Shown: positions 1 to 60,343 of the stretch, one piece after another
Layout: each line of letters starts with the position of its first letter
Position numbering within the stretch: position 1 is the first letter of the stretch
Assembly: GCA_964188305.1 (NCBI GenBank)
Contig: OZ076889.1
Length of the DNA stretch: 64,000 nt
Reading direction: 5' to 3' (one strand)
From: Podarcis bocagei
Lineage: Eukaryota
Translations under genes and position numbers: made by a program
Notes under the pieces: generated by a model
What the model was told of the DNA's origin: nothing
Databases searched by the model: none
Seen by the model: only the letters and a program-made list of their open reading frames with translations

Positions 1-2676
1 AGGAAAGGAGGAGGAGTGGCGTTATATGTCAGGGATGTGTATACCTGTGAAGAGATCCAAGATTTAGAACCTCAAAGCCAAAGTGAGAGCATTTGGGTCA
101 AAATTAAGGGAGAGAAGAATAACAGAGACCTCATTGTGGGAGTTTACTATAGATCCCCAAGCCAAACGGAGGACATAGATGATGCCTTCCTGGAACAGAT
201 GGCCAAGCATGCAAAAAGAAGGGAGATAGTAGTAATGGGGGACTTCAATTACCCGGATATTTGTTGGATGTCAAACTCAGCCAAGAGCATAAGGTCAAAC
301 AGATTCCTCACTGTCCTTGCAGACAACTTCATTGTCCAGAAAGTGGGAGAAGCAACAAGAGGAACAGCCATTTTAGATCTAGTCCTAACCAATGTTGATG
401 ACCTGGTTAGTGGGGTAGAAGTGGAAGGATCATTAGGCGCGAGTGATCATGCTCTTCTGAAGTTTACTATACAGCGGAAAGGAGCAGCCAAGCATACTAG
501 GACTCAATTTCTTGACTTTAAGAAAGCCGACTTCATAAAACTTAGGGAAGTGCTGGGTGAGATCCCATGGACAGTAATACTAAAAGGAAAGGGAGTTCAT
601 GATGGCTGGGAGTTTGTTAAGAGGGAGATAGTAAAAGCACAACTTCAGGCAATACCAATGAGACGGAAACATGGAAGGTGCCTAAAGAAGCCAGGGTGGC
701 TATCTAAAGGACTTTTAACTGAGTTAAGATTTAAAAAGCATGTGTACAAAAAATGGAAAAGGGGGGAAACCACCAAAGAGGAATTCAAACAAATAGCCAG
801 CACATGTAGACACAAAGTCAGAAAAGCTAAAGCACAGAATGAACTCAGGCTTGCTAGAGAGGTTAAAAGCAACAAAAAAGGCTTTTATGGGTATGTCTGT
901 AGCAAAAGGAAGAACAAAGAAACAGTGGGGTCACTCAGAGGAGAAGATGGAGAAATGCAAACAGGGACACAGAAAGGGCTGAACTACTCAATGCCTTCTT
1001 TGCCTTAGTCTTCTCCGATAAAGAAAACAATGCCCGACCTGAAGAATTTGGAACAAATGATTCAGCAGAGGAAACACAGCCCAGAATAACTAAGGATACA
1101 AGAGTACAAGAATACTTGGCTAGTTTAGATGTATTCAAGTCTCCAGGGCCAGATGAACTGCATCCAAGAGTATTAAAAGAACTGGCAGATGTGATCTCAG
1201 AAGCACTGGCAGTCATCTTTGAGAATTCCTGGAGAGCAGGCGAAGTCCCGGCAGACTGGAGGAGGGCAAATGTTTTCCCTATTTTCAAAAAGGGGGGAAG
1301 AGAGGACCCAAATAATTACCGCCCAGTCAGTCTGACATCAATACCAGGGAAGATTCTGGAGCAGATCATTAAGCAAACAGTCTGTGAGCACCTAGAAAGG
1401 AATGCTGTGATCACCAATAGTCAGCATGGATTTCTGAAAAATAAGTCATGTCAGACTAACCTGATCTCATTTTTTGACAGAATTACAAGCCTGGTAGATG
1501 AAGGGAACGCAGTGGATGTAGCCTACCTTGATTTCAGCAAGGCATTTGACAAGGTGCCCCATGATATTCTTGTAAAGAAGCTGGTAAAATGCGGTCTTGA
1601 CTATGCTACCACTCAGTGGATTTGTAACTGGCTGACTGACTGAATCCAAAGGGTGCTCATCAATGGTTCCTCTTCATCCTGGAGAAGAGTGACTAGTGGG
1701 GTGCCACAGGGTTCTGTCTTGGGCCCGGTCTTATTCAAAATCTTTATCAACGACTTGGATGATGGACTCAAGGGCATCCTGATCAAATTTGCAGATGACA
1801 CCAAACTGGGAGGGGTGGCTAACACCCCAGAGGACAGGATCACACTTCAAAATGACCTTGACAGATTAGAGAACTGGGCACAAACAAACAAAATGAATTT
1901 TAACAGGGAGAAATGTAAAGTATTGCACTTGGGCAAAAAAAATGAGAGGCACAAATACAAGATGGGTGACACCTGGCTTGAGAGCAGTACATGTGAAAAG
2001 GATCTAGGAGTCTTGGTTGACCAGAAACTTGACATGAGCCAACAGTGTGACGCGGCAGCTAAAAAAGCCAATGCAATTCTGGGCTGCATCAATAGGAGTA
2101 TAGCATCTAGATCAAGGGAAGTAATAGTGCCACTGTATTCTGCTCTGGTCAGACCTCACCTGGAGTACTGTGTCCAGTTCTGGGCACCACAGTTCCAGAA
2201 GGACACTGACAAACTGGAACGTGTCCAGAGGAGGGCAACCAAAATGGTCAAAGGCCTGGAAACGATGCCTTATGAGGAATGGCTAAGGGAGCTTGGCATG
2301 TTTAGCCTGGAGAAGAGGAGGTTAAGGGGTGATATGATAGCCATGTTCAAATATATAAAAGGATGTCATATAGAGGAGGGAGAAAGGTTGTTTTCTGCTG
2401 CTCCAGAGAAGCGGACACGGAGCAATGGATCCAAACTACAAGAAAGAAGATTCCACCTAAACATTAGGAAGAACTTCCTGACAGTAAGAGCTGTTCGACA
2501 GTGGAATTTGCTGCCAAGGAGTGTGGTGGAGTCTCCTACTTTGGAGGTCTTTAAGCAGAGGCTTGACAACCATATGTCAGGAGTGCTCTGATGGTGTTTC
2601 CTGCTTGGCAGGGGGTTGGACTCAATGGCCCTTGTGGTCTATTCCAACTCTATGATTCTATGATTCTATGATTCTA
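1..2676 (+). mobile_element. CR1 LINE, young copy running off the left edge: APE endonuclease + RT ORF2 with two lesions, 3' UTR and (TATGATTC)n tail
   Basis: ORFs 16-1008 (GDFNYPDI, SDH endonuclease motifs), 1116-1643 and 1653-2591 ([18 protein letters not shown]). 1-bp deletion at ~965 and CGA>TGA at 1641-1643 relative to the copy at 24490-26702. Octamer tail at 2651-2676. Confidence 0.97.
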
Positions 2677-4046
2677 ACATCAAAAACAGGATCTGTGCAC
2701 AACAGCACTCTCCCTCATGTGATCCCTAGCAACTGGTATTCATGGGTATACTGTCTCCAAAAGTGGAGGTAGAACCTGAAGATAAATATTACTGTAATGG
2801 ATATTCTTATGATTATCAAAAGTCAGTGAAGTCTCATCTGGTATACAATCCTAAGAAGCTCTTCTATGGAAGAGTATTGTCTATTTATTTTAGTTCAGCT
2901 TGTGAAAGAGAAGATTTTAATATATTACACCCATTAAATCCTACTATACCTGGGTTGTGGGGCAAAGATAAGCTGAATAGTGATGTTCTTGTGCAAATAA
3001 CTATCTGTCTGTTACTGTGAAGGAAAGGTAAAAGTATTTTGGGATTTTCTGCCTCAAGTGTCAAAATGATTTAAGTGGCTTAGGGTACAATGCACTTTGT
3101 GTTGTTCTTGGGTGGGTGTGCAATTAGCTGTTTCATTTCAGGCACCACATTTTGCCCAGATGCTTCCCTCCCTGCAGCTCCCCACTCATTGTGCATTGTA
3201 GATTGTAAACAAGTTGAGAAAAGGGACCTATGTGCATTTCCTACATAATGCTGTAAGGTGTTGTGCATGCTGATAGCTCAGCTGTAATGTGGATATGTTA
3301 TTATGCTTTATAATTTTACTGCTTTGTTGCTTTCTTGGTAAATAACTCTGAGATGCTGTGTGAAAAGTTAACTAGAAATGTTTTAGATAAATGCACATTT
3401 ACTTTGTGTAGTTTATCAGATATATTTGCTGTAGATTGAAGTCTGTTTTTACGCCACGTTGGCAGATTCCCTGTTTTAAAAAATGGCACCACAGTTATTT
3501 TTACAGGTGTTGGGTTGTTGTTTTTTAACACCATCAGCAAATGGGTAACTGCTTGTGTTGGTTTGAACATGTGCACTGTCCTATGCAGTGGGAACTCCTG
3601 CACAATCCAACGTATGTGTGCTCCACTGGGCTGCCCAAGAGGCAGGATGAGGCAGATGCCTCACATTGCACACCCCAGGGCTGCAATGAACCCCCCAGGG
3701 CACAGCCCAGCTTTGCCACCTGGTACTCTGGTCTAGGGGCAGATAGGGACCGGGGTTAAAACTCTGCAGAATGCCTCCCCTACTGCCGAGTAAGCAAGAG
3801 GGGAGGCATTCTGCCGCCCAGCTTTTTTACTACACAGGAGGGGGAAGAAGTCCCCCCAGTCAAGCAATGTGGTGAAGCTTTGGACCAGCTTTCCCCAAAG
3901 GAAGAAGCTGGTGCAAAGCCCTTCCACTGAATGGGGAGGGGGTATCTGGAGAAGCTCTTATGGAGACCCCCTCAATTGTGGGGGCAGCAATGAAGTATTT
4001 CACCTCAGGTGCGAAAACGCTTCAGACTTCACTTGGGCAGGGGCAC

Positions 4047-4135
4047 TAGGGTTGCCATATTTCAAAAAGTGAACATCTGGGCAAAAATGTTGTTGACCTT
4101 TTTTTAGTTTTGCTTTTTTTTTTTTGGTTTTTTTT
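4047..4135. mobile_element. hAT (Blackjack-type) MITE end, interrupted by the 4136-4869 unit and probably resuming at ~4870-4915
   Basis: TAGGGTTGCCATATTTCAAAAAGTGAA matches the reverse complement of the right end of the MITE at 34944-35089. Confidence 0.6.
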
Positions 4136-4869
4136 TTGCGTGTTCAGACCCAGAAACCTCCCCCTAAATAAATTCACACTTGACTCACACATGGTTTGGT
4201 TTTTGGCAGAATTTCAGCCACAACTTTCTTGATTACAGAAGGTAACTGGTTGCATAGGCTCTGGTTCGACTAGCTGCCTGCCATGCAGGTAGCGCTGACC
4301 CAGGGCACCAGCAGAGGTCAGCCAAGGATGAACACCTGGATAAGCGGAAAGCCAGGCATGGGCTAACTCCGCCACCCAAATGTCCCCCTGGACTCAGGCA
4401 CGGGCACAACCCCCTCACAGGGGTTGACCAAACCATCAAGTCCCTGGATTCCTTTAACGGAATACCCTTCACATAGTGATGGCGAGACCGTTCTCTCATG
4501 CCTATCACATGAACCAGTGCCTATCCGCAACCTTACAAGTTGTGACGAATTGCTACGTGGCAGCGAAACCCAAATGGCAACAGCCAATCAGCCAAGTGGG
4601 GGAAATTCCTGCTGTGCCCCTGTCCCAACGACAGACGACACACGGCGGCATAGCAAGGTCAAGTGCAAAGCCCTAAAAGTAGGGAGAGGTGTGGGGGGTT
4701 CTGAATGTACGCGCCGAAAGAGGAAGCTCTGGGTCATGTGCATGGGCATAAATAGGTCCCTCAAACCATTTGGACTGTGCCAGATTTGAGGGACCAACCA
4801 ATCGGGTGTTGTGGTCAACCAATTGTACCCACCACAATATGTGTCCTCTTTAAAGGAGGACCCGATTTG
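4136..4869 (-). mobile_element. Structured LTR-like unit, copy A (candidate DIRS/Ngaro-type terminal repeat)
   Basis: Shares GACCTTGCTATG, AGGAATT, CGTAGCAA..CGTCACAACTT, GCCATCAC, GGGTATTCC..GGAATCC and CTGTAATCAA(G)AAAGTTGTGGC blocks with 36316-37074. TATTTAT at 4754-4748. CAA at both ends. Confidence 0.7.
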
Positions 4870-13851: not shown

Positions 13852-14215
13852 AAAAGGTAAAGGACCCCTGGACAGTTACGTCCAATCAAAGGTGACTATG
13901 GGGTTGTGGTATTCATCTCGCTTTCATGCCAAGGGAGCCGGCGTTTGTCCACAGACAGCTTCCCGGGTCATGTGGCCAGCATGGCTAAACCACTTCTGGT
14001 GCAATGGGACACCGTGATGGAAGCCAGAGCACACGGAAAAGCCATTTATCTTCCCACCATAACGGTACCTATTTATCTACTTGCACTGGTGTGCTTTCGA
14101 ACTGCTAGTTTGGCAGGAGCTGGGACAGAGCAACGGGCGCTCACTTCATCGCAGGGATTCAAACCGTCGACCTTCCGATCGGCAAGCCCAAGAGGCTCAG
14201 TGGTTTAGACTACAG
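13852..14215 (+). mobile_element. Sauria SINE (Squam1)
   Basis: AAAGGTAAAGGACCCCTG start, GGTACCTATTTATCTACTTGCA core, GATTCAAACCG box. Same family as 17725, 18796, 35101, 41478, 42183. Strand is given relative to the AAAGGT-first reading. Confidence 0.9.
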
Positions 14216-17259: not shown

Positions 17260-17403
17260 GATTCTTACAGAGTGGGGGGAGTTAAGAATACAGTTCAGAA
17301 TATGGAAGAGCTCTCGGGCACACACATTAGCACACTGTTCAAAAGTATGGTTACTGGAAATTGGTGTCTTGACCACTCAACACTGAGTCTACTTTGTCTA
17401 GAG

Positions 17404-17540
17404 CATTGTTTCCCAAACTTGGGTTTCCAGCTGTTTTTGGAATACAACTCACATCATCCCTAGCTAGCGGGACCAGTGGTCAGGGATGATGGGAATTGTA
17501 GTACAAAAAATAGCTAGAGACTCAAGTCTGGGAAACAATG
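17404..17540. mobile_element. hAT-Charlie (URR1-like) palindromic MITE
   Basis: TIR CATTGTTTCCCA, perfect 8-bp TSD GTCTAGAG, CATCATCCC..GGGATGATGGGAATTGTAGT core. Confidence 0.9.
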
Positions 17541-17724
17541 GTCTAGAGGGAGGGGGAGGGGGAGGAAGAAAAAGGAGATGAATCATGCTGATCAAGGTGG
17601 ATACAGAGCTCTTGAGCCCCATCTTGCCAAAAGATGCTGTCTTCTGGAAAATCCTTTATGCTCCTCTTTCCCCACCAGCTCTGGGGATCAAAGTCTCTTT
17701 CATTCACCTGCTTTGTTATCTTAA

Positions 17725-18083
17725 AAAGGTAAAGGACCCCTGACAGTTAACTCCAGTCGTGAACGACTCTGGGATTGTGGTGCTTATCTCGCTTTACTGG
17801 CTGAGGGAACTGACATTTGTCCGCAGACAGTTTTTCCAGGTCACGTGGCCAGCATGACTAAGCCGCTTCTGGTGGAACCAGAGCAGCGCAAGGAAACACA
17901 GTTTACCTTCCCGCTGGAGTGGTACCTATTTATCTACTTGCATTTTGGCATGCTTTTGAACTACTAGGTTGGCAGGAGCTGGGACCGAGCAGCAGGAGCT
18001 CACCCCATCGCAGGAATTCAAACCGCCGACCTTCCGATCGGCAAGTCCTAGGCTCAGTGGTTTAGACCACAGTGCCACCTGCG
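17725..18083 (+). mobile_element. Sauria SINE, full length
   Basis: Family motifs, 12-bp TSD TTGTTATCTTAA (17713-17724, 18084-18095). Confidence 0.93.
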
Positions 18084-18795
18084 TTGTTATCTTAAGCATA
18101 GGCTATTAGCACATGATGAAACAGATGTTAGACCTGTGGCATCAGAGACTGGGTATGTGTGTTCTTCCAGACCTAGCTCACATTTACAAAGACCTAGATG
18201 GCTTCTATTTTTTGTAGTTCCAAGGAGATTAAGCATTTCAAGCTTAGCTAAGGCTTTGGGACAGTTTTGTATACCAACCATTATGATTATGAAGCTAGTG
18301 TTGCCTGGTAGCAGAGTGTTCTTTTCTAAGCTAAATATTCATTCTTCACTCATACAGTTTATAACTTGATTTATACTGCACTGAAAGCATCAAAGGCTGG
18401 TACACATTTGCAGGCAACACTATAAAAATGGACAGGCAGTTTAGCAGGTTGAGGGAAGAAAAAAGTTTATACTTAGAAGTTTTGCGAGAGGCACAACATG
18501 TCTCTTATAAAAGAACATACATGAATACTTGATATGGAGAACACACATGAGTGTATACATCATAATAATATACCCAACAGTAGAATGCTTAATCTGTTTG
18601 CTTAACAAATAACACTGCACACTGTGAGAAGGAATAATAAGAGGACTTCAGCAAGAAAATACAGCAAGGTGAAAAGCCAGCTGAAAAGATCTAGAGCCTT
18701 AAAATCTGTTATTGGAAGAACTTTAGTTCAAATTGTAGACTGATAAAATGAAATTAACCCCCGCAGTGAAAATTTGCCATATGATATCTAAGATA

Positions 18796-19038
18796 AAAGG
18801 TAAAGGGACCCCTGACCATTAGGTCCAGTCGTGGCCGACTCTGGGGTTGCGGCGCTCATCTCGCTTTATTGGCCGAGGGAGCCAGCATACAGCTTCCAGG
18901 TCATGTGGCCAGCATGACTAAGTCGCTTCTGGCGAACCAGAGCAGCACACGGAAACGCCGCTTACCTTCCTGCCAGAGTGGTACCTATTTATCTATTTGC
19001 ACTTGGACATGCTTTCAAACTGCTAGGTTGGCAAGAGA
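18796..19038 (+). mobile_element. Sauria SINE, truncated at the right end
   Basis: Family motifs up to GCTAGGTTGGCAAGAG, flanking repeat ATGATATCTA (18781-18790, 19040-19049). Confidence 0.88.
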
Positions 19039-24060: not shown

Positions 24061-24489
24061 AACTGATGTTGTTGTTACTGCTACTACTACTACTAATGGG
24101 CAGTGCCTGACACACTGAATCTAAAAAGTGTTCTGTTGTTGTTTGTTTGTCTTTTTAATGGAAAGTGTAATTTTTGAGTTTGGACCAGACACATCAAAAA
24201 TCATGTGAAGTCACACCAAAGTCACATTTGGTCTGCCATCCTGATTCAGAACAGTGTTTGGCATCCAAATGTTGGCAAAGAGTGCCACTCCCACCTCACG
24301 AACCCTCATTCTAAGTATGGCAATGATATCTCGAGAGGCAGACAAACCCATGCCAAAAAATTGGGCCAAGTTACACAAAAGTAACGTTTCAGTCTGCTAT
24401 ATTGATTCAAAATGGCTGCTAGGATCCAAACACCAATGAAAACTTCCACCCTCATATTGAGAGCACTCAGCCAAATTTGGTGATGATAT

Positions 24490-26702
24490 TCATAGAATCA
24501 TAGAATCATAGAGTTGGAAGAGACCACAAGGGCCATCGAGTCCAACCCCCTGCCAAGCAGGAAACACCATCAGAGCACTCCTGACATATGGTTTTCAAGC
24601 CTCTGCTTAAAGACCTCCAAAGTAGGAGACTCCACCACACTCCTTGGCAGCAAATTCCACTGTCGAACAGCTCTTACTGTCAGGAAGTTCTTCCTAATGT
24701 TTAGGTGGAATCTTCTTTCTTGTAGTTTGCATCCATTGTTCCGTGTCCGCTTCTCTGGAGCAGCAGAAAACAACCTTTCTCCCTCCTCTATGTGACATCC
24801 TTTTATATATTTGAACATGGCTATCATATCACCCCTTAACCTCCTCTTCTCCAGGCTAAACATGCCCAGCTCCCTTAGCTGTTCCTCATAAGGCATCGTT
24901 TCCAGGCCTTTGACCATTTTGGTTGCCCTCCTCTGGACACGTTCCAGTTTGTCAGTGTCCTTCTTGAATTGTGGTGCCCAGAACTGGACACAGTACTCCA
25001 GGTGAGGTCTGACCAGAGCAGAATACAGTGGCACTGTTACTTCCCTTGATCTAGATACTATACTCCTATTTATGCAGCCCAGAATTGCATGGGCTTTTTT
25101 AGCTGCCGCGTCACACTGTTGGCTCATGTCAAGTTTGTGGTCAACCAAGACTCCTAGATCCTTTTCACATGTACTGCTCTCAAGCCAGGTGTCACCCATC
25201 TTGTATTTGTGCCTCTCATTTTTTTTTTTTTTTTTTTTGCCCAAGTGCAATACTTTACATTTCTCCCTGTTAAAATTCATCTTGTTTGTTTTGGCCCAGT
25301 TCTCTAATCTGTCAAGGTCATTTTGAAGTGTGATCCTGTCCTCTGGGGTGTTAGCCACCCCTCCCAGTTTGGTGTCATCTGCAAATTTGATCAGGATGCC
25401 CTTGAGTCCATCATCCAAGTCATTGATAAAGATGTTGAATAAGACCGGGCCCAAGACAGAACCCTGTGGCACCCCACTAGTCACTCTTCTCCAGGATGAA
25501 GAGGAACCATTGATGAGCACCCTTTGGGTTCGGTCAGTCAGCAAGTTACAAATCCACTGAGTGGTAGCATAGTCAAGACCGCATTTTACCAGCTTCTTTA
25601 CAAGAATATCATGGGGCACCTTGTCAAATGCCTTGCTGAAATCAAGGTAGGCTACATCCACTGCGTTCCCTTCATCTACCAGGCTTGTAATTCTGTCAAA
25701 AAACGAGATCAGGTTAGTCTGACATGACTTATTTTTCAGAAATCCATGCTGACTATTGGTGATCACAGCATTCCTTTCTAGGTGCTCACAGACTGTTTGC
25801 TTAATGATCTGCTCCAGAATCTTCCCTGGTATTGATGTCAGACTGACTGGGCGATAATTATTTGGGTCCTCTCTTTCCCCCTTTTTGAAAATAGGGACAA
25901 CATTTGCCCTCCTCCAGTCTGCCGGGACTTCGCCTGTTCTCCAGGAATTCTCAAAGATGACTGCCAGTGGTTCTGAGATCACATCTGCCAGTTCTTTTAA
26001 TACTCTTGGATGCAGTTCATCTGGCCCTGGAGACTTGAATACATCTAAACTAGCCAAGTATTCTTGTACTATCTCCTTAGTTATTCTGGGCTGTGTTTCC
26101 TTTGCTGAATCATTTGCTCCAAATTCTTCAGGTCGGGCATTGTTTTCTTTATCGGAGAAGACTGAGGCAAAGAAGGCATTGAGGAGTTCAGCCCTTTCTG
26201 TGTCCCCTGTTTGCATTTCAACATCTTCTCCTCTGAGTGACCCCACTGTTTCTTTGTTCTTCCTTTTGCTATGAACATACCCATAAAAGCCTTTTTTGTT
26301 GCTTTTAACCTCTCTAGCAAGCCTGAGTTCATTCTGTGCTTTAGCTTTTCTGACTTTGTGTCTACCCGGTTTGGCTATTTGTTTGAATTCCTCTTTGGTG
26401 GTTCCCCCCCTTTTCCATTTTTTGTACACATCCTTTTTTAATCTTAACTCAGTTAAAAGTTCTTTAGATAGCCAACCTGGCTTCTTTAGGCACCTTCCAT
26501 GTTCCCGTCTCATTGGTATTGCCTGACGTTGTGCTTTTACTATCTCCCTCTTAACAAACTCCCAGCCATCATGAACTCCCTTTCCTTTTAGTATTACTGT
26601 CCATGGGATCTCACCCAGCACTTCCCTAAATTTTATGAAGTCGGCTTTCTTAAAGTCAAGAAATTGAGTCCTAGTATGCTTGGCTGCTCCTTTCCGCTGT
26701 AT
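24490..26702 (-). mobile_element. CR1 LINE, young, 5'-truncated, with an uninterrupted ~710-codon ORF2 fragment (RT intact, endonuclease lost)
   Basis: ORF 24570-26708 nearly identical to the copy at 1-2676, FADD motif, (TATGATTC)n tail at 24490-24510, probable 9-bp TSD. Confidence 0.97.
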
Positions 26703-27462
26703 TGACAATATCTAAGCCTGCAGATAACTAAAAGACAGACAAACCACTTTCCAAAATATATAGTAGATTAACAACAACAGTAATAGCAATAACAGAAGCT
26801 GTACTACTCAGGAAAAAACCCAAAGACCTCAGTATACTGAGCCAATAGATTTTTGTCTATCAAATGCTGAGAATAATGATGGTTGTTCTGCCCATCATAT
26901 TGCCCTTATGAACCAGTTGATCACTGTCAAAGATAGAATTGTAAACAAGATGAACTATTAGTCTGGTCCAGAATATCAATACTTATCTCAGGCTTGAACG
27001 GCCTCCCCTCATTCTTCATTTTCAACGAGTGCAGAGATTGTAAAGCAACTTTATGCTAAATGTGAATCATGGGTTTGACTGCAGGTGATTTCATAGTTTA
27101 TTTAGCAGTCTCAGTTTCATCCCATGTGTAAAGGCTTCCACTTGGCTGCTTTAATGTTTCGTTGTAGGTTTTGAGATGTACTTTGCGTTGTACATTAATG
27201 CTTTCAAGATCAGTTCTGCTGTGCATACCATGATGGGCATTCAACATGAAATGTGTGGCTACACTCAAATGCGGCTTCCTAAAAAGGTGGGGGAAATTAA
27301 AGGGAATGATGGAGATGGCTGGTGTTTGGACGTGCCTTCTTGCAATTTTCATTATGAGCATGTGAGAAGAATGTTTTATTTCTGAGAATGGTAATGGGGA
27401 TGCAATGGTTCGTGAAAAGAAGTGCAGTTGCAGAACAGTGTATATGTGAGTATGTGTATAAA

Positions 27463-35100: not shown

Positions 35101-35471
35101 TGGACACGGGTGGCGCTGTGGGTAAAACCTCAGTGCCTAGGACTTGCCGATCGTATGGTCGGCGGTTCGAATCCCCGCGGCAGGGTGAGCTCCCGTCGTT
35201 TGGTCCCAGCTCCTGCCCACCTAGCAGTTCGAAAGCACTCTTAAGTGCAAGTAGATAAATAGATACCACTTTATAGCGGGAAGGTAAACGGCGTTTCCGT
35301 GTGCTGCGCTGGTGCTGGCTCGCCAGAGCAGCTTCGTCACGCTGGCCACGTGACCCGGAAGTGTCTCCGGACAGCGCTGGCTCCCGGCCTCTTAAGCAAG
35401 ATGAGCACGCAACCCCAGAGTCGGTCACGACTGGCCCGTACGGACAGGGGTTCCTTTACCTTTACCTTTTT
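35101..35471 (-). mobile_element. Sauria SINE, young and CpG-rich
   Basis: Family motifs, (CCTTTA)n end, 13-bp TSD TAACATAGTTAAT (35088-35100, 35472-35484). Confidence 0.94.
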
Positions 35472-36366
35472 TAACATAGTTAATCTGTGCATAGCAAAAT
35501 CCAGAAAATGGTATAATCCAAAAGGGAGTTTCATTTTGATGTGCAAGCCAGCTGGGGAGCTTCAAATCTGCTTGATCTGCTGTCAAAGGTAGACCAAACA
35601 AATTCCTTTCTCATCCCTACCTGGACAAAAATATATGAAAATGTAGAGCATTTACTTGTCAAACAACAACTCTCATGGGGCAAAGGTCTCAAGGGGTGGG
35701 GAGCCTTCTCCAAAGACACTTGTAACTGATTACCTGCTTCTGCACCAAGCTGAGGGGAGCGTGTCCATAACTAAGTACCCCCTACCTTCCCAGTTTTAAT
35801 CTAATTATATGCAGATGCACAATAAATGCATAGGCACATATTGAAAGCTGAGCAATGCCTTCTATTTTGGGCTACAATCCTAACCTCCCTTCCCTAAGGG
35901 CAAGCCCCATTGAATTCAGAGGGACTTCTGACTAGTCATAGTAAGGTTTGCAGCCTAAAGTCTTGCATGCGCATTCTCATATGTTGCACATCAGAGACTC
36001 CTGGAGCTTCAAAGGAATTCTGCCCTGGACTGGAACCCAACGTTAAGTAGTTTCATATGGACCAGTTGGCTGATCTCTAGGTACCATATGGACAGATGCC
36101 GAAAGAACAATGTTGATAGTTCTTGTGTTATCACAAAAAAGACGGAGAGCTGTGATGAGGCGGGGCTGGACTGAGCTCAGCCAAAATGGTTGTTCTTTTG
36201 GCTAAAGTTGACATGTCATCTGTGGTGTTTGGGACACTGCTATATCCAGTGCTATTTTTCTAGAAAAATAGGTGCTGAACTCACAATGAACTCCTCCCTT
36301 GCTCTCTTAAAATGGTAAAGCCATTTCCGCCTTGGAGGAGATGGGGTTGCGGGCTAACTCCTCCCA

Positions 36367-36509
36367 CACGTGCGCGGGGGCTGGCCTTTGCCCCCGCGCG
36401 AGCAGGGAATCCCCGGGCGTGTCACCGAGCCAGCCAGCCAATCAGCTGGCCGGGGAGGTGGGGCCTGGCCTATTTAAGGGCGGGCACGCCCGGAGACCGC
36501 CCTCTTTCC
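36367..36509 (+). promoter_or_regulatory. Predicted Pol II promoter of unit B
   Basis: E-box CACGTG 36367-36372, kappaB-type GGGAATCCCC 36405-36414, CCAAT 36438-36442, GC-box-like 36452-36463, TATTTAA 36471-36477, CTCTTTCC at 36502 (31 nt after the TATA start). Confidence 0.55.
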
Positions 36510-36569
36510 ACCTGGGCAGCCGAGAGGTTTTCCCGTCCCACCCACCCTTAGGCTTAGCTAGACACGACC

Positions 36570-36669
36570 TTGCTATGGACTTCGGTTGGTCGCCGCAAGG
36601 GGCCTGGTAGGAATTTTTCCAAGTTGGCGCAATTTTAGCCTTTTGGTTTTTTCGCCTACCTCGTAGCAA
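36570..36669 (+). ncRNA. Candidate ENE-like (U-rich internal loop) RNA structure
   Basis: GGTAGG-AA-T5-CCAAG...TTTGG-T6-CG-CCTACC (36606-36660), inside an outer stem TTGCTATG/CGTAGCAA, with UUCG- and GCAA-capped side hairpins. Confidence 0.55.
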
Positions 36670-37324
36670 ACGTCACAACTTCCATGGTTTTGGCGGTTAG
36701 GCAATGGCAGGGGGAATTGTTATGCAAATGAGAGGGGGGAAGGAAGCGCCATCACCTTCCCCAAATAAAAGGGGTAGTCCGGTAGAGGACTCCGGGGGCG
36801 TTGCCTTGTCCGAAACCTAGGGAGGTAAGGGCCTCCGGCACGCCCCCGAGCGGTGACACCCGTGGGATCCTAGTTGGCATACTTCAACAGGACCCCCACG
36901 GTTTGTGTACAACCCTTCCCGGTCTCCATGCCGGGTAGTCGATAGGAGCCAATGCCTAAAGCCAATACCTTTCAATTCTGTAATCAATAAAGTTGTGGCC
37001 TTTTATGCCCATTAACCTAAAATATTGTGTCCAGTGTCTTCATTTCATATGGGGGGGGGAGACTTGCCACACAATGGTGCCCACCTGAGAGGTGCTGGAA
37101 CTGAGTTGCAGCTGGAAAAAAAGCCCTGGCTATATCCGTCATGTTGACTGCTCTGAGAAGGCCTCTCTGTAGTGACTCTCTATCACCAAAGAAAGTCATT
37201 TTGGGAAGAACATAATGGATGGAACACTGCTGCAGTCTGATGGTGAGCTTTTTCATCTGTTGTTTTGAGAAAGAGAGAGATGCCATCAGTACACTAAATA
37301 CTAATGGGAACTCTCTAGTTAATT

Positions 37325-39243: not shown

Positions 39244-39830
39244 GTTACATATAAATCAGACCCTTGATTTTTTTTTAAATGTTGCAAGCAATGTATTACT
39301 CTTTGCTCCCTAAATAAATTGAGAAATCTTCCTGTCATGTAGCCCTGTTACCATTCTTAATCGTTCTTTTATAATTAATCCTCAGAATAGTTAATAATGT
39401 AGATTCCATTCCTAGCTTTGAAATAATATCTAGTTCGGTGAATGTATGATGGATGCTTTTAATAAAGTCAGTAATTATCTTTTATTGTTGATGGGTGCTG
39501 GTTTATTTTTAATTGTTCTTTTTGTTCTTTTGTGGTTAGAGAGCACTAGAGTGTTGGGTTTGACAAAGGATTGAGCTATTTTTAAATCTTTATATAATGC
39601 GGCTACAATGAGGTTAACAACAGACTAATATAGATGGGAGGGGGGACATACAAAAAAAAATCAGTGTTTTTGAATGGTACCTAATCCAAAATGTATTTAA
39701 ATAGATCCAAGATGAATTATAACTATGTAAATTGCCTCTTGTGGTCATGATCTTAAAGGATTCATTTGCTAAAGGATGCTCTTCCCATGCCAATTGCATG
39801 TGCCCCAGGCCTAATCTACACCATCTAGAT

Positions 39831-39966
39831 CAGGCATAGGCAAACTCGGCCCTCTGGATGTTTTGAGACTACAACTTCCATCACCCCTAGCTAACAGGAC
39901 CAGTGGTCAGGGATGATGGGAATTTTAGTCTCAAAACATCTGAAGGGCCGAGTTTGCCTATGCCTG
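39831..39966. mobile_element. hAT-Charlie (URR1-like) palindromic MITE; an older relative lies at ~40042-40177
   Basis: Long TIR CAGGCATAGGCAAACTCGGCCCT, TSD ATCTAGAT/ATGCAGAT. Confidence 0.9.
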
Positions 39967-41477
39967 ATGCAGATCATACCATGCAGGAAGCAGAGGTGTG
40001 AATAAAACTGCCCGCGCCAGTGGCAGCTTCATGGTTTACCATCAGCCTTCTCCAACCTGGTCTCCTGCAGGTGTTATGGACTCCAATTCCCATCAGTTAC
40101 AGCCAGCATGGAAAATGGTCAAGGATGATGGGAATTGTAGTCCAAAACATCTGGAGTGTTAACAGGTTTGGGAAGATAATAGCTCACACAAATGAGATTA
40201 ACCACATATAATGAACAAAATAACCAACATTGCCAGTTAGTTTGGCCTAGAGGAGAAATGATTTCCTGGCCTCAAATGTGACAGTTGTGAATTATGAAGA
40301 ACGTAACGTCCTCACAGCTACATAAAAAGCCCTTCCAATGAATGGAAGGGAAATATTAGTATTTAAATACCTTTGTGAAGGAGGGTCAAAATAAATATAA
40401 GCTTTGAATCCCCATGCCTTGCAACTGAAAGACTAATTTTCTGCCTGATAGAACTCTGTCACATACTTCTAGACTAAAGCAGTAGAAGATAATATTCTTT
40501 GTTTATTTTGTGTTTCTTATACTATCTGTAAAATATGGCATCAGTTGTGTATATAAAATTGTAGCTTATACATTGCTCAAACAAGCAACATTCATAACCC
40601 TTCTCCTTGCATTTATGGTCAACAAAACGTTTCATACCCACGTTTCAAAGAGAAGGAAAACTGACTGAAATGAATACAAGGGATGTGAACCATGGAATTT
40701 TTTTTAAAAAAACTGATTGCTCTTTTTTCTACTGCAAGATTCTAATTCTGTGTGACCATATAATTTGGAGAATATTTTTGTTTGCTTTTTTTGAAGTATG
40801 ATTCCTTTTCAATTCAAACCACTTAAAATGTATAGTGTAGCTGTAGCTTTCAAAACAGAAAAAAGAGCTCTGGTCTTAAGTCTCTTGTCTATTTGATTCC
40901 TCCAGTGGTTTGAGTATCTTAAAAATCAGTTCTGCTCTGCTTTCATTACCAGGAGTTCTGTAGTTCCTGAATTTGATAGAATATGTTATACCACCTCAGC
41001 TTGCTTATTACAACATGGTAATGAGTTATTTTTCCTCAAGAACAGCCTGAGAACAAGCAAGAGAGGAGAATATATTTTCAGTCCTTTATTTTTAAATCAA
41101 TTGGCCGTCAATATATTAAAGTGTGAAATGTGTCTAGTCAGGTTCTGATCTTTGGAATGAAGGGCTTCCTTACCCAGTGCAGTATGGAGGCTTTATGCTA
41201 GGGATAGAAAACACTGCATGTCAGTAGTTACATAATTTAATGAAGTGCTGAAGCCACTACCACATTCATGCCTGTTTTTTGGAGGAAGACAATGGGCCAG
41301 TAAGTCTTGTGCAGCAATAACATCGAAAAAAGAAAAGCTGAAGAGCTGAAGCAGAACAACAGATAAAAATCCAAATAATAGGCAGGTGAAAGCTCAAGAA
41401 TATTACAAGATCAAGCCACGATTAAAATGACCTCACAGAGCAGACTCAGTAATAAGTAGTAAGTAAGAAAATAAGTA

Positions 41478-41824
41478 GGGACACGGGTGGTGCTGTGGTC
41501 TAAACCACTGAGCCTCTTGGCGACGGGGTGAGCTCCTGTTGCTCGGTCCAGCTCCTGCCAACCTAGCAGTTTGAAAGCGCATCAAAGTGCAAGTAGATAA
41601 ATAGGTACCACTCTGGCGGGAAGGTAAACAGCATTTCCGTGTGCTGCTCTGGTTTCTGTGTTCTGTTGCGCCAGAAGCGGCTTAGTCATGCTGGCCACAT
41701 GACCCAGAAAAACTTTCTGTGGACAAACGCAGGCTCCTTCAGCCTTTAAAGCAAGATGAGTGCCGCAACCCCAGAGTCAGCTGTGATTGGACTTAACTGT
41801 CAGGAGTCCTTTACCTTTACCTTT
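41478..41824 (-). mobile_element. Sauria SINE
   Basis: Family motifs, TSD AA(G/T)AAAATAAGTA (41465-41477, 41825-41837). Confidence 0.92.
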
Positions 41825-42182: not shown

Positions 42183-42314
42183 AAGGTAAAGGTAAAGGGA
42201 CCCCTGACCATTAGATCCAGTCGTGACCGACTCTGGGATTGCAGCACTCATCTCGCTTTACTGGCCAAGGGAGCTGGCGTACAGCTTCCGGGTCACAGTG
42301 CCACCTGCGTCCCC
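42183..42314 (+). mobile_element. Sauria SINE with a large internal deletion
   Basis: Both ends present, 13-bp TSD TTGTGCAACCTTA (42170-42182, 42315-42327). Confidence 0.9.
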
Positions 42315-44621: not shown

Positions 44622-45978
44622 GCAACAGGGGAGCGACCACAGAAAAGTCACATTCTCATGTGGCTGCCCTCCAGATCTCTCGCAGAGCCGTCACACAAAG
44701 AAGGGCCTCAGATAATGATCCCAGTGTCTGGGTTCAAATAATGATAGATGTTCATGTGGGGTGGTTTTCTGCAGAATAGTTTTGAAGCAACCATCAGTAT
44801 AAATGGCTGCTGGTCATATGAACACACTTTCTGAAGCTAGGAGAAGGCCATCTGACGGCAGTAAATGCTGCTTATGGGACCTAGGAAGTATTATAGGCCT
44901 GTGTACGTGCAATGTTGCATAATCATTATGAGTAATTAATAACAGATAGCTAACGATTATGATTTATAAAGTGCTTGCACTGCACAGTAACAAAATTTAA
45001 GACAGGCACTGGTCACTAACAAAAGGAAAAAAGAAATCAGAGGAACCCACTAGGAAGGGAAATTAAATCACCAATGGGTAGCTCAAGGTTACTCAACCTA
45101 TATGACTGCCGGTGCTCTATAGTTTTGGTCTGCACAATAAACTGTGTTTTGCAAAGCTAAATGCAGCTTACCAGCCACAGTTTGTAACTTATGAGGTGCT
45201 TGGCAACCAACAACTACCAAAAACTAAAACACGCAGGTTTATTAACCCCATAGAGGGACATCTAATATTGCTAGTGGGCTGCACCTGCCTTGGAGAATCA
45301 CAGCTTGGGAAGACTTTGGCTGTGGAATTTATGTTGGTTGATTCCTGTTCTGGAGGACAAGGGTCACCACTGTTTGAACTGCTGCTTTTGGCTACAGGTG
45401 GGAATGACAGGTAGAAAAAGGTGCTTGAATCATGTGACACTTTTGTTGCTTCACTTGCTTGACGTACTCTGTCACTGTCTTTATTCTTCAGGAGGTTGCT
45501 CTTTTTGCAGAAATGTACACTTTTAATTGCCTGTTAGTTGGCTGCCGAAATATTTATTGTTCACATTTTGTAAGCCCCTGTTGGCTAGGCATCTGTGATA
45601 AATAAAAGGATGGTGTAGAAAGCAATTTTTAATGTCAACCAGGAGAAGAAGAAAATAGAGAGATTGATCTTAGTTCTCATCTTTGTCTCTCTCTTTTTTA
45701 TTTCTAGAAAAGTCATGCTAAGAATCCCTCTTTGATTAATTGCTTTACATGCTTATTCTGTTGTGCTTTGTGCAGTATTACAGGAACCATGGGGTTGGAA
45801 AAGCTATCAGTCTCTGCATGAGAAACCTGCACTCGTTTAACTGAAGCATGTGGATTAAAATATTGTTTAGTTACATTTGGGCAGATGCTCGAAATGACAC
45901 TTTTGAAGAAATAGCAACCTTTGCTTCAAACAAAACAGGATTCTTAATTCCATGAGCCTAGTCTGCACAAACCGGGTT

Positions 45979-46851
45979 CTGATTCAAGGACCACCACCCT
46001 CCCCCACCTGCTTGGGGATAAGAAAGACACAAGGACACAGTATATAAGGTTAATGGGCTAGAAAAGGCCACAACTTTATTGATTACAGCATGTGAGAGGT
46101 ATTGGCTTAGGCATTGGATAAACAGCAGAGCTTGACTCTACCCCCTCAGGGAGGGGTGAGTCTAACAAGGGTTAACTACCAGTAGGGGGAGCCTGTTGAT
46201 GCAAATACAACTGTAAGCTCTCCCCTGATGTCACCGAGGGTCATGCCATGGCCCCCAGCCACAGCAGGGCATTGGACAGGATCCACGACCGCCGGATTCC
46301 TTTAATGGAATACCCATAAAGTGAAGGGGTAGGTGATGGCCACACCCTGCCCTTCCATACACCAGCAACATATTCCAATGCCTAACTGTCACACACTCTC
46401 ACCTCAAAATCAGCCCCGCTTCAAAAGTAATGCTAACACTGGGGAAATGGCAAGGCACACACACTCTCTCAGTCAGAATCATCCACCCAAGGGCAAAAAA
46501 ACCCCACACAGCCACGCCACCAAACCTCACAGCCGGAGCTGGTCACAAGCACCCACTTTGCAAGCTGCTGTTGCCTCCTGGAGCTTCCTTCTGCCTGCAA
46601 AAGAGCGAGCGACGACGTCCTGTCCTCCAGTCTTGACCTGTTGAAACCCGGCAGCACAATGAGGGGAAAGAGCTGCCGCGGCCGCATTTGAACAGCTAAA
46701 CCCCGCCCCCGAGCTTCCCTACAATTGGAAGACTAACTGGGGAGCGTGGTGCGGCAGCAATGACGGCAAGCAGGGGCCGGAACGCCCCCTGTGAAGTGCG
46801 AGAACGGCTCCAGATCGCAACCCCTCCCCTCCGGGAGGAGGAGAGGCTTTG
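45979..46851 (-). mobile_element. Structured LTR-like unit, copy C (candidate DIRS/Ngaro-type terminal repeat)
   Basis: Minus strand starts CAAAGCC..GGGGTTGCG and ends CCAATGCCTAAGCCAATACC..CTGTAATCAATAAAGTTGTGGCC..CCCATTAACCT..TGTGTCC, like copy B. The left boundary is approximate. Confidence 0.72.
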
Positions 46852-55700: not shown

Positions 55701-58700
55701 GTTTGTTTTTTGAGTTTGTATGGATGATTTTATTGGTTTTTTAAAAAAGAGTCTGTTGAGTGGATTTTATAATTTTTAGAACTTTTGTTTGTGTGTTCTG
55801 TTCTGTTTTTATTTTGTATACCACTCTGATGGTCTTATGTTGTCAAGCAGTCTATAAATTTGTATAATAATAATAATCTAACCTGCTGACTTCACATGCA
55901 GTGGAAGATGCTGTCTCATAACTGGTGTTGACATAATATTCAGCTCTCAGTCTAGTTTGACTTCCGTAAATTGAGTGAGGACTACCTTCTCCTTTGCCTC
56001 AGGCAGTAAAATGTCTTGAGATAGCCTTGAGTCTTTCTGGCAAAAGTTGGAATGCTATGCTTACCTAGACAGGCTGCCACCATAACATCTGTCCCAGTGC
56101 TTCAAATACAAGCTGTCTTGCCTAGCAGTTTTAGTTTGCAAGTTATTATCTCCTTGCCATAATGTTGATTCATTCAGTCAATCAATAACAATGGCTGACC
56201 TTACAGACTCTATACATCCAGACACTGTATAGCTAAATAGAGCCATGAGTGCCCGAAGGGACCAAAAAGCCATCAACGTAAACCCATCCTTCAAGGAGAT
56301 CATCATGTTAACAACCTGCAGATCTAAAAGCCTAACTATCTCCACACCCCTATGAAGACTTCTTACGATATAGGACACTGTTATGGCTAGCACATGCAGA
56401 CCAACTGTGAGAAGGAAGTTGCCAACATCAACCTCCAAGCCATGATAAATTTTGTCAGATATGGGGAAGAAGCTTTGGCCCACCAGTTGTTAGTGAGCTA
56501 CAACTCCCATCACCCCTGGCCATTGATCATGGTTGCTGGGGTTGATTGGAGTTGTAGTTCAGCAACATTTGGAGGGCCAAAGATTCCTTGCACCTATCTT
56601 TAGTTCATAAATAACTACCTCAAAGTGTAAAACAGTTTATGCTTCCAATGTCCCCGATGAGCCTTTTATGACTCCCTTGCTGCAGTGTAGTGTATTCTTC
56701 ACACAAACACTATTTGCAGTGTTTAATAAATCAAAACTACAGCCTTGCTAATTAAGAAAGAGGTTTTAAAACGTCGAGTTTCACTTTTCCCAGTGATTCA
56801 TTGAATCCAGGCAGAAAGGGGTTATAACACACATCACACAGAATGCACCCCCTCAGAACGCAGACAGAATCTATTCCAAAGTGGCAGGTAGCTAACTATT
56901 CAAGGCAGGCAGGCAGATGATTGTGGATGTGATGACTAGAGGATGTTGCTCAGATGGAGACATGGGTTACAAGAAAAAAGAGAGATCACAGTTGCATTTT
57001 AAAATCAGTCAGGAAAGAAAACTGATAGGTGACAGAGCTAAAGAGAGACACTTGATGTAGCGATGTGGAATGATTGCAGGCATGCCTGCGCAAATGTTTA
57101 AACTATGAATCCGATAGGCAGTGTAACTTTTGCAAATAAATAAATGTTTAAAATGGAGCAGAATGGATACTTTAAGTCTGATCCTTTAAGCATCTGCAGT
57201 AGTGGTGGGGCTAATGCAAAGACACACGCCCTGAACCCCAGCATAGTGATGTATTAGGAAAGGGATGTGGGTGTGTTGAGAAGCATTGTATGGATGCTCC
57301 GTTAAGTCCATTTGTGAATGGCAGACCTAATACAGTTCGTTAAGGTTTCTCTATTCCTCTGAAAGCTTCTCCCCTATGAGTCAAATGTTCAAAATGCCCA
57401 AGAGGCATCACTCTGAATGATGTAGACTGCATGATGAGGGCACTCCTGCAGCATTAATGTCATTGTCCTGAATTTGTAAATACAATTATGTCAAACGTAT
57501 TGAAGAAGATGATGACATTTACCCTAACCATAAATTTGTAAGCCTCGTAGCCACAGCCATCTGCGTTTCTGTGCCGTGTGTGTGTGTGTGTATTATGGAG
57601 GGAAGTTTTGAAGAGGACACAGATTTTCACAGGTTTTCATGGTATCTTGAGCTGCGTTCTAAGAACTAGTGTTCTTGTTTTTTTAAAATTTGAAATGCTT
57701 TTTTTAAAGTCACCGTGACAGTCTGGAGCAATGCAAGCATTCTTCTGTCCATCTTTCCCAGAATACCTAGTTAGCGGAAGAGAAGGGGGAATGAAGGCAA
57801 GCGGTTGGGAGTGGAATTAGGGTAGCAATGACACAGTTGACAAAAAGAGGGTTGGGGGTCCCGTACTGGCAGTGGGATCCATAAATCAGGATCTTCTTAT
57901 GTTCTTAAGATGCTACGTCAGGGGTAGAGGCATAGGTTGTGCCACAGCTGGTGTGTCAGCAGATCATGCTGCCTGCATCCTCTTGTTAACCTTCACACAT
58001 CCTTAAAATCCTGCAGTATCACTCAAATGTCATATGAGTGAAGCGAGCTATTCATATGTGACTTTCTCAGTTAATCTAATTGTGTCACACATTTCAAATT
58101 ATGGTAATTTAAAGATACCACACATGGGGGGGGGAATGAATTAATTATTAAGAATCAATTAAGCCTTGGCACTATTTAAACACGGGGCGGGGTGGATATG
58201 TCCTATATCTGAACTTAACCTTCTTTCTGATTTTCCTTCTTATTGCGTTCATAACAATTCTGCAGTTGCAATTAGATGACTCTAGTAGAATGTCTAATGT
58301 TTTCAAGGGGAAAGAGTTGGGATTCATTTTAAAGCATTTCTGCTTTTATCTCAGTCAAAAGGAGTTTGTAGTTACTGGTATGTATTTTAGCTTGCATTTA
58401 AATGCAGGCTTCTAGAATACCTCTGGGATTCATACAAGCCAGAAAGGATCCCCATCTCCACTTTTGTCCTTCAGGCTAGATGGAATGTATACTAGATTTC
58501 TTGCAGTTCCTTATTCATAAAAGATCCCCCCCCCCGACCACCAGTAGAGAAGAAGAATTGGTTCTTAAGAGTTTATAATCTTCCCAAGAGGCAAATTTGG
58601 GGGAATATAAATAATGTTATTTTTAAAACAATACAACATCTCCAACTTTGCATTAGGACACCATCACTACTCTAAAATGGAACAAAGACTAGAAAGCATC

Positions 58701-60157
58701 ATATTATTTCTTCAGTCAAACTGCCTTTACTTTGGCTCAATATTCTTTATCCTCCATTTAGCAAATAATGCACTTTTTAAAGGGAAAAAGAACTTATTTG
58801 GGTGTTGAGCAATTGGCTTAATTGTACTGGGGGTGGGCGGGAAGCAATAGTAATATCAAGGTGACATTCTTCATCGATATGGAGGGAAGGCAAAAGAAAT
58901 CACAATGAAATGGATAGCTGGGCTCCACCAAAATGCAGTCCAGAATCCCACCACCACTACCAAAGTGGTGGAAAATGGGTTTCTACAAGAAAGCAATTAT
59001 CTGATTGCTTCATCATTTGCCTTTCAACAATGTGGTGAACAATCCACATTCTACTGAGCAGAAAGGAAAACTGAGAATCCTCCCAGAGTAAAAAATAAAT
59101 TTAAAAATCACACTTCAAAGGTGTTTTTTTAAAAAGCCAGTCCAGGACACACATTCAGTTATGTGAAGATAACTCCTCAACAATTGAAATAAAAATCCCA
59201 GGCCTGTTTCTGTAAGCACCCAGCCATAACTATGGGGTGAGAAAGAGGAAAGGGGCTCTGTAGAGCAAATCCTAGAACAAACTCTGAGGAGCATCATAAG
59301 GGAATGTGCCTGTCTTTACTTGGGAAATGGCTACCTTACGGGCTCCATAGGCAGAATCAGTTTAAACTGGCTCCACCGAGCTCCAAGTTACCCTCACGCC
59401 AGTCCTGGTTCACCCTGTTCCAAGGTAATAAGGGAACAAATGATGGGTATTCAGTCCCAAAACAGCTCTAAAATAAACTTCTCTGTAAATTCTAAATACT
59501 GCAGTAGCTTCAGATGCCGTGTACAGCAAAAAGATGAAAAGAGAGAGGATTAAAAGCATTATGTGGATCATTTCTTCAGGATATTTAGAATCAGGCACAT
59601 TCCAGAGTGATCTCTCCTGTTACTGAGGCATTGTGGAATTCTGCATACTAGGTTTGTTAACCTCCTTCTGGAAACATTCTGCTGCTTCTCCAAATTGTCT
59701 TGGCTTCCTCCAGTTCAGGAGTATGGCCAAAAGCTCTTCTTATCCATTTTTTTTTTTAAATTGAATTGCTGAAGCAGTGCAAAGTGAAACTAATCTGGAT
59801 TGTACCACTGTAGACTGGAGGTGGGCAAGTGCATGACTGAATGTTCTGCCTACTAAAAAGTTATCTGCACACAGAAAGGAAAACGTCAGGGGGAAACGTT
59901 CTCGATTCACTGTCTCCCCGGTATAGAGATGGATGAACCCACTGAAGTCTGGCCCATTTGAGTTCTACATAGGGAGGTACATAAAATTCTGCAAGAAATA
60001 TGATTAAAAGCACATTGAGGCAGTCCGCAGGCTAAAGCACTGCCCTTTTTAAAAACCCTTTCTAAAGACTACCAAAATAATGTCACCTAAATATGTCACC
60101 CCAGCCTGGTGTAATTATTATGCAGGGCTTCTTACTGTCATACCCTTTGAGTTAGAG

Positions 60158-60293
60158 CAGGCATGGGCAAACTTGGCCCTTCAGATGTTTTGAGGCTACA
60201 ATTCCCATCATCCCTGACCACTGGTCCTGTTAGCTAGGATTGATGGGAGTTGTAGTCCCAAAACATCTGGACAGCCGAGTTTGCCTATGCCTG
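60158..60293. mobile_element. hAT-Charlie (URR1-like) palindromic MITE
   Basis: TIR CAGGCAT(G/A)GGCAAACT, TSD AGTTAGAG/AGTTAGCG. Inverted near-copy of 39831-39966. Confidence 0.9.
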
Positions 60294-60343
60294 AGTTAGC
60301 GTGATAGTACTTGTGTGGTGGCAGAGGCAGGGCGGAGTGGGGG

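Follow-up and report, generated by a model that had tools for sequence, protein, structure and literature searches.

A predicted RNA fold in the terminal repeats of Podarcis bocagei Ngaro retrotransposons as a candidate replication signal

Background

The question raised by this locus is whether three divergent sequences in the window (the whole 64,000-nucleotide stretch of Podarcis bocagei DNA analyzed here) share an RNA fold and, if they do, which element carries the fold and what the fold may do for it. A preliminary description had proposed a multibranch domain conserved by compensatory changes in three copies (A, B and C) and had offered packaging or reverse transcriptase (RT) recognition, export, an internal ribosome entry site (IRES) and an unrecognised ribozyme as candidate functions. 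Published systems are compared on the basis of excerpts of the papers cited.

The host element

All three copies are terminal repeat units of Ngaro tyrosine-recombinase (YR) retrotransposons, whose layout in Podarcis bocagei (genome 1.6 Gb) is A1-gag-RT/RH-YR-hydrolase-B1-A2-X-B2. Loci L031-L034 contain A1, the gag-like, RT/RH, YR and hydrolase ORFs and then B1, A2, X and B2, one of them without the gag part; seven of eight further loci have the same repeat layout, and where the domain is intact in these their RT/RH is 55-80% identical to that of the first element. A genome search with copy B gave 40 scored matches over ~760 bp at 88-100% identity, and in four of these, which are L031-L034, a second copy of the 3' half lies directly upstream. 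The genome holds at least 6,480 B copies, counted with two disjoint exact motifs at the B poly(A) signal (2,952 + 3,528; reversed controls 0 and 2), and the three copies are therefore members of a family with thousands of copies and not three isolated loci.

The elements have split direct repeats, RT/RNase H and YR ORFs and an SGNH hydrolase after the YR, a layout that matches the excerpts of the published Ngaro descriptions (PMC9210276, PMC3783388, PMC8547959, PMC7192593). In Pfam the RT ORF matches RVT_1 (E=3e-10), the YR ORF matches Phage_integrase below the Pfam cut-off (E=4e-4) and has a HSFRIG..RW..Y motif in its translation, and the hydrolase P0003 has no match, while its homologues P0010 and P0012 match Lipase_GDSL_2. 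Two other classes were rejected: DIRS1-like elements have inverted terminal repeats and an ICR, and the repeats here are direct; LTR retrotransposons and retroviruses have two complete LTRs, gag-pol and a DDE integrase, instead of which we found split repeats and a YR. The Ngaro SGNH hydrolase, described as lacking a proven function in the excerpt consulted (PMC9210276), has relatives in 2,578 clusters at 50% identity. When metagenomes and viruses were scanned, the hydrolase alignment found zero relatives, and a motif scan of metagenomes returned four stretches, the one examined of which (L260) is not an element. No tRNA gene was found in four full elements.

The features of the copies in the window are as follows.

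36317..37074 (+): copy B, a solo A-X-B terminal Ngaro unit, matching A2-X-B2 of full-length L032 at 90% identity over 767 nt
36317..36531 (+): repeat A, matching A1 and A2 of L032, predicted to act as promoter
36438-42 (+): CCAAT of repeat A
36471-77 (+): TATA-like TATTTAA of repeat A
~36502-09 (+): pyrimidine initiator-like CTCTTTCC of repeat A
36532..36690 (+): spacer X, present solely before B2, with none following A1 or preceding B1
36672..36681 (+): X motif GTCACAACTT, complementary to 36990-36999 with one G-U
36691..37074 (+): repeat B, from the start of B1/B2 identity
36691..36696 (+): TGGCGG, whose GG at 36695-96 marks the fixed B1/B2 junction and is predicted to bulge out where the lower stem meets the closing helix
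36697..36708 (+): closing helix P1, 5' strand, 95% of cells paired, both-side changes in 5/12 pairs
36735..36762 (+): hairpin P3, which holds GCCATCAC in the lineage of copy B, swap test p=0.001
36770..36775 (+): central helix Pc, 5' strand, partner 36912-36917, swap test p=0.0005 in 20 lineages
36776..36791 (+): hairpin P4 with loop G(U/G)UA(A/G)A, conserved more than any other inner motif, top covarying pair 80:93, two-set E=0.001 and 0.038
36792..36853 (+): arm P5 with the inner GTCC/GGGC motif, swap test p=5e-5
36855..36910 (+): arm P6 with GACA at its base, swap test p=5e-5
36912..36917 (+): central helix Pc, 3' strand ACCCTT, covered by the same swap test
36918..36940 (+): TAGTC and the variable hairpin P7, which some lineages lack
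36948..36969 (+): P1 3' strand (36948-59) and lower-stem 3' strand GCCAATACC (36961-69)
36970..36999 (+): in the B1 context the pairing partner of the hydrolase ORF end, with AATAAA at 36986-91 and AAGTTGTGGC at 36990-99
45976..46850 (-): copy C, with A at 46850-46634, a unique 248 nt replacing X, and B from 46386
4135..4837 (-): copy A, a solo A-X-B unit of another lineage

Repeat A ends ~20-35 nt past the pyrimidine tract in the eight full elements with A1. B1-type copies of the copy A lineage follow the hydrolase ORF and have RT/RH and YR remnants upstream. The 248 nt of copy C (46387-46633, minus strand) replace X exactly, from the A end to the last G of the GG junction; they are unique in the genome search and may be a leader, captured or extinct, that became joined at this junction. 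In the lineages folded, X (36532-36670) has a conserved structure of its own, formed by a CTTGCTA/TAGCAA helix and an inner pairing of the GGAATTT/TTTTTCGCC type.

The fold and its conservation

The domain occupies the first ~280 nt of repeat B, and its architecture, read by hand, is a lower stem, the GG bulge, the closing helix P1, hairpin P3, a helix Pc that closes the P4/P5/P6 junction, and variable hairpins. The strand coordinates first given for the closing helix were correct, and it pairs at 12/12 positions in C, 13/14 in A and 11/12 in B, where the A·A mismatch is private to this copy and the helix of its relatives is perfect. Its reported difference in sequence from copy to copy was not borne out: P1 is the most sequence-conserved part, B and C sharing 10/12 bases of the 5' strand, and among the three copies the compensatory changes proposed for it occur in A only. 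The 5-bp hairpin, GCCATCAC, GACA and A(C/T)CCTT are all present (GCCATCAC is missing from several other lineages), and GGGT does pair with A(C/T)CCTT, as a nested central helix and not a pseudoknot. The loop and motif variants listed for the copies were also found, but two of them, ATTAAA as the loop in C and ATCCTT in A, are not what most members of the respective families have and look like decay after insertion. A pseudoknot, a group I/lariat-capping core and an RNase P-like fold, all compared as generally known topologies, were rejected; the GAC/GUC pairing breaks in other lineages and GGGT/ACCC nests.

Conservation was examined across the genome by reducing 303 poly(A)-motif sites in loci L001-L259 to 259 usable domains, 73 representatives at 94% and finally 21 lineages with a mean identity of 51%. 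In a swap test, the pairing energy of each helix with its own partner strand was compared with that of partner strands swapped between lineages, with permutation p-values that ignore relatedness. All six helices tested passed at p≤0.001, with own and swapped energies (kcal/mol) of -18.8 and -15.9 for P1, -14.1 and -12.3 for P3, -7.7 and -6.5 for Pc, -3.9 and -2.2 for P4, -26.2 and -21.0 for P5, and -23.2 and -17.1 for P6; three non-helix controls gave p=0.57-0.96. Swapped partners still reach substantial energies in the G-rich and C-rich arms, as expected if the domain were functionless and its G/C-rich runs folded by chance, but own partners beat swapped ones where matched controls do not. 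The IRES proposed earlier has the domain in the wrong place, downstream of the last ORF and with no ORF after either copy. We regard an IRES or a domain of no function as highly improbable.

In a structure-blind alignment of 30 hand-picked representatives, 95% of the P1 and P4 cells are paired and 8/17 pairs show changes on both sides, a result reached by none of 500 shuffles, while slid controls gave 24-51% paired. When all ~36,800 column pairs were scanned blind for covariation against a home-made tree-based null, none was significant; the best of them (80:93, E=1.75) falls in P4. Restricting the test to 21 proposed pairs gave three at E<0.05, and the four inner P5 pairs (GTCC/GGGC) failed in it on the blind alignment. 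Blind RNAalifold returned P1, the lower stem, P4 and three other pairs only, recovering mainly the stalk and P4 because the arms shift register. Some elements whose repeats are near-identical lack hairpin P3 or P7 (P3 in L187, whose B1 and B2 are 99.5% identical), and the core is therefore taken as the stalk, Pc, P4, P5 and P6. Selection on the fold, as first proposed, is thus supported by the swap tests and the pair counts, although the blind scan did not reach significance, and this support extends over the one genome in which the fold is shown.

All three domains also fold better than 100 dinucleotide shuffles, a comparison that the preliminary description had called for, and they do so on both strands, with z of -3.6 (B), -2.3 (C) and -5.7 (A) for the sense strand and -4.7, -3.7 and -5.2 for the antisense strand in the same order. 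X and B folded together reach z = -1.7 only. Because the antisense strand also beats its shuffles, shuffles alone cannot choose the strand, and the structure could matter as single-stranded DNA, in circle closure or recombinase loading; DIRS-1 cDNA is described as single-stranded in the excerpt consulted (PMC7192593). This reading is very improbable in our judgment: the sense strand tolerates G-U substitutions, the sense fold is the more stable in 11/12 lineages, the pairing is arranged around the poly(A) signal, and CAA(A), the recombination core, lies ~100 nt away at the B end.

The B1/B2 junction

Among 42 neighboring B pairs two are unrelated insertions and were left out. In the remaining 40, the identity between B1 and B2 starts directly before P1 and extends to the repeat end, being 100% in 19; it begins at (T)TGGCGG in 36, at GG in three and 3 nt further out with a mismatch in one. 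The GG is unpaired in the RNAalifold prediction, between G-C/C-G pairs and P1, and is kept in 257/282 copies. Over the folded part, an element's own B2 is nearer to its B1 than the B1 of any other element in 33/37 cases, with four ties, and in one lineage of 18 elements B1 and B2 diverge by 0.1% within elements and 10.3% between them. In lineage A, B2 was absent after all ten B1 copies examined. Elements L146, L152 and L154 have a few extra bases before the GG in B2 that are missing from B1, which places the identity boundary at the GG itself.

Since B1 equals its own B2 with identity from the GG onward, and since independent copying of the two from one RNA would let them drift, these comparisons suggest that one template likely supplies both B copies in each cycle, down to the GG. 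No AATAAA-type site that could end an RNA at the start of B2 was seen in X. As an alternative, a new self-cleaving ribozyme (or a nuclease guide) could cut its own foot in B2 to leave the template end or primer, with the B1 hairpin and long stem switching it off. A cut at the B2 start would explain the single templating; B1 does carry an inserted hairpin immediately ahead of the junction, and TGGCGG occurs there in a second register; and the fold has a compact junction with an invariant loop. Against these points, the hammerhead core motif, CUGAnGA, occurs in 0/12 lineages on either strand, in line with the initial remark that the domain does not match a hammerhead; Rfam, with its HDV, twister, pistol, IRES, epsilon and RRE families among others, gave no match at the three copies or 13 other loci apart from one chance match (E=5.6); few unpaired bases inside the domain are invariant; and four RNA-seq reads span X into B, though these may be host-gene read-through. 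A ribozyme of a novel kind is kept as a rival, one that we consider quite unlikely.

Two outer pairings around the poly(A) signal

B1 is preceded by the stop codon of the hydrolase, a first TGGCGG and a hairpin. In this context the end of the hydrolase ORF pairs with the stretch between the lower stem and AAUAAA, over 11-27 bp in 12 lineages, so that the last hydrolase codons (P0003 family) form one strand of the B1 stem. Own partners in this stem give -29.5 kcal/mol and swapped ones -19.4 (p=5e-5; control p=0.71; 12 lineages). The stem covers the AAU of AAUAAA in 6/12 lineages; in lineage D it has 11 bp and stops short of AAUAAA. In the B2 context, GUCACAACUU of X can pair instead with AAGUUGUGGC just past the hexamer, with a pair probability >0.8 in 6/8 lineages and of 0.16 and 0 in the other two. 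The X motif is exact in 136/166 copies, and the pairing is without covariation support because both motifs are nearly invariant.

A full template requires read-through at B1, and the B1 stem is therefore a candidate control of poly(A) use, by analogy with retroviral poly(A) choice as described in part in PMC3694450. The same context would suit a nuclear export, stability or 3'-end processing element (RRE/RexRE/CTE-like) required at the ends of B1- and B2-terminated RNAs; the repeat boundary would then coincide with the fold only through selection for the whole module in each copy, with conversion making the copies equal. The long stalk and multibranch head, the size of 250-330 nt, the position directly before AAUAAA, and a B1 stem that covers or approaches the hexamer all fit, and HTLV-1 RexRE offers a precedent of a large fold acting on polyadenylation (excerpt of PMC3694450). 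However, an export element alone does not explain a base-precise junction in 40/40 pairs, the near absence of divergence between B1 and B2 or the invariant GG, and we judge it unlikely.

RNA-seq was sampled in four runs, 6-12% of each being read and 59-120 reads aligning per run. Low-depth reads from related subfamilies lie over B and X; near AAUAAA they are sense-biased in two bulk runs (52 vs 7 and 20 vs 7), and no reads lie over A at 88% likeness in the four runs. At this depth the reads gave no called start, end or poly(A) site. They resemble the L228 subfamily. Loci L227 and L228 are hydrolase-B1 fragments followed by LINE-like sequence, with many near-identical genome matches, many of them on contig C19, and are possibly Ngaro pieces carried by another element or repeat.

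A candidate replication signal

Of the four functions first suggested, RT recognition or packaging is the best match, since the B1/B2 junction is precisely where the fold begins. The explanation that we favor, with somewhat better than even confidence, is that the fold acts as a replication signal, with priming or a strand switch at its GG, combined with a context-dependent control of polyadenylation. Transcription from the A1 promoter would give an RNA with two copies of the fold. In the B1 copy, pairing with the end of the hydrolase gene in a long outer stem would leave AAUAAA partly hidden and so permit read-through to B2; in the B2 copy, spacer X would close the domain, the element's RT or Gag would bind, and a new B2 would be copied from B1 down to the GG. 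Minus-strand synthesis may begin at the B2 GG, in the way that hepadnavirus epsilon uses its bulge (variant a), or the plus strand may start at the B1 GG in the manner of a polypurine tract, with the redundant 3' copy discarded at circle closure (variant b). Both variants would yield A-X-B minicircles and would thereby explain the excess of solo units described below. Several points count against a replication signal, among them that frequent gene conversion could also equalize B1 and B2, that the X pairing is weak in two of eight lineages and invariant, and that the best pair of the blind covariation scan did not reach significance.

A more specific version is only a tentative proposal, namely that the fold is the priming signal of split-direct-repeat YR retrotransposons, that reverse transcription starts without tRNA at the GG bulge, primed by a protein or by this RNA, that the B1 context silences both priming and polyadenylation, and that the thousands of solos are integrated minicircles and not remnants of recombination. 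The predicted lower stem, bulge and upper stem are epsilon-like. Snap-back priming by GUUGUGGC on X was rejected, as it would skip X bases that B1 cannot restore.

Solo units

We classified 60 motif sites, the first 30 matches of each of two motif searches on one contig, and found ~43 A-X-B solos (37 called by script and six by eye, two script calls having been removed), four sites in two full elements, one B1-only site and 12 unclear or incomplete sites. The 79 hydrolase-selected loci comprise 37 full, 35 B1-only and seven broken elements. In the excerpt consulted, published solos are ascribed to recombination (PMC8547959). The repeats available for it here are 390 bp long and 760 bp apart vs 220 bp long and 7 kb apart; recombination would be expected at least as often between the 390-bp repeats and so to leave mostly B1-only elements, and the solo excess therefore suggests another source, for example integrated minicircles of reverse transcription.

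Most solos have only the shared CAA(A) core at both ends. Seeming target duplications of 3-6 bp flank L006, L011, L012, L026 and copy B (AATGGT; 36311-36316 and 37073-37078), which is unexpected for YR integration.

Relation to known systems

The element is of a known kind, while its RNA domain, the two contexts of the domain and the junction appear undescribed. It resembles the amphibian Ngaro with an SGNH hydrolase, Xenopus DIRS-53_XT, in the order A1-ORFs-B1-A2-B2, in its gag-like, RT/RH, YR and hydrolase ORFs and in identical repeat pairs, but the B repeats are 360-440 bp long here and 152 bp there (excerpt of PMC9210276); the latter are too short for the fold, which may therefore not be general. 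Published Ngaro elements likewise have solo AB units (excerpt of PMC8547959). A fold in B, a structured X of ~150 nt, a fixed GG junction and two context-specific outer stems set the present elements apart from Ngaro as published in the excerpts consulted. The mostly open-access literature covered describes no RNA fold or fixed junction for Ngaro repeats, squamate DIRS/Ngaro included.

Hepadnavirus epsilon, in the excerpts consulted (PMC3748129, PMC8903280, PMC5541001), shares the lower stem, bulge and upper stem, the occurrence twice within the RNA and a role that is here a candidate one, RT binding or priming; it differs in its ~85 nt, against ~280 multibranched nucleotides without an Rfam match and with a candidate active copy at the 3' end. 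HTLV-1 RexRE and the HIV-1 polyA hairpin also place a terminal-repeat structure where it bears on the choice between two identical poly(A) sites (excerpt of PMC3694450), whereas in the present elements AAUAAA comes after the fold, and the strand that hides it belongs to the end of a coding sequence, beyond the repeat. The SIRE of T. cruzi VIPER is a solo made of A2, a unique spacer and B2, like ours, but with a spacer of ~30 bp and no fold reported in the excerpt consulted (PMC6681497), which states that the origin and mobility of SIRE are open.

The primer of DIRS-1 reverse transcription is stated as unknown in PMC7192593 (excerpt), and no description of Ngaro priming was found in the literature examined. 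For this question in the DIRS order, the present results single out one dinucleotide, a defined RNA domain and a pair of alternative outer stems, and several elements with 100% identical repeats make it directly testable. The proposed replication signal would supply a mechanism by which solo AB units, SIRE among them, could arise, and would bring in an RNA family that Rfam does not contain, with thousands of copies bearing predicted promoters in a lizard genome.

Other repeats in the window

Two RT-bearing non-LTR fragments, which we take to be CR1-like, lie inverted and 22 kb apart at 469-2698 (+) and 24463-26711 (-) and are 96-98% identical. SINE copies, presumably Sauria-like, occur at 13852-14192, 17723-18084, 18795-19037, 35104-35270, 41548-41818 and 42187-42295. 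Palindromic MITE-like repeats with sub-threshold mir-5408 matches are found at 17388-17513, 39815-39974, 40069-40152, 56475-56578 and 60142-60299.
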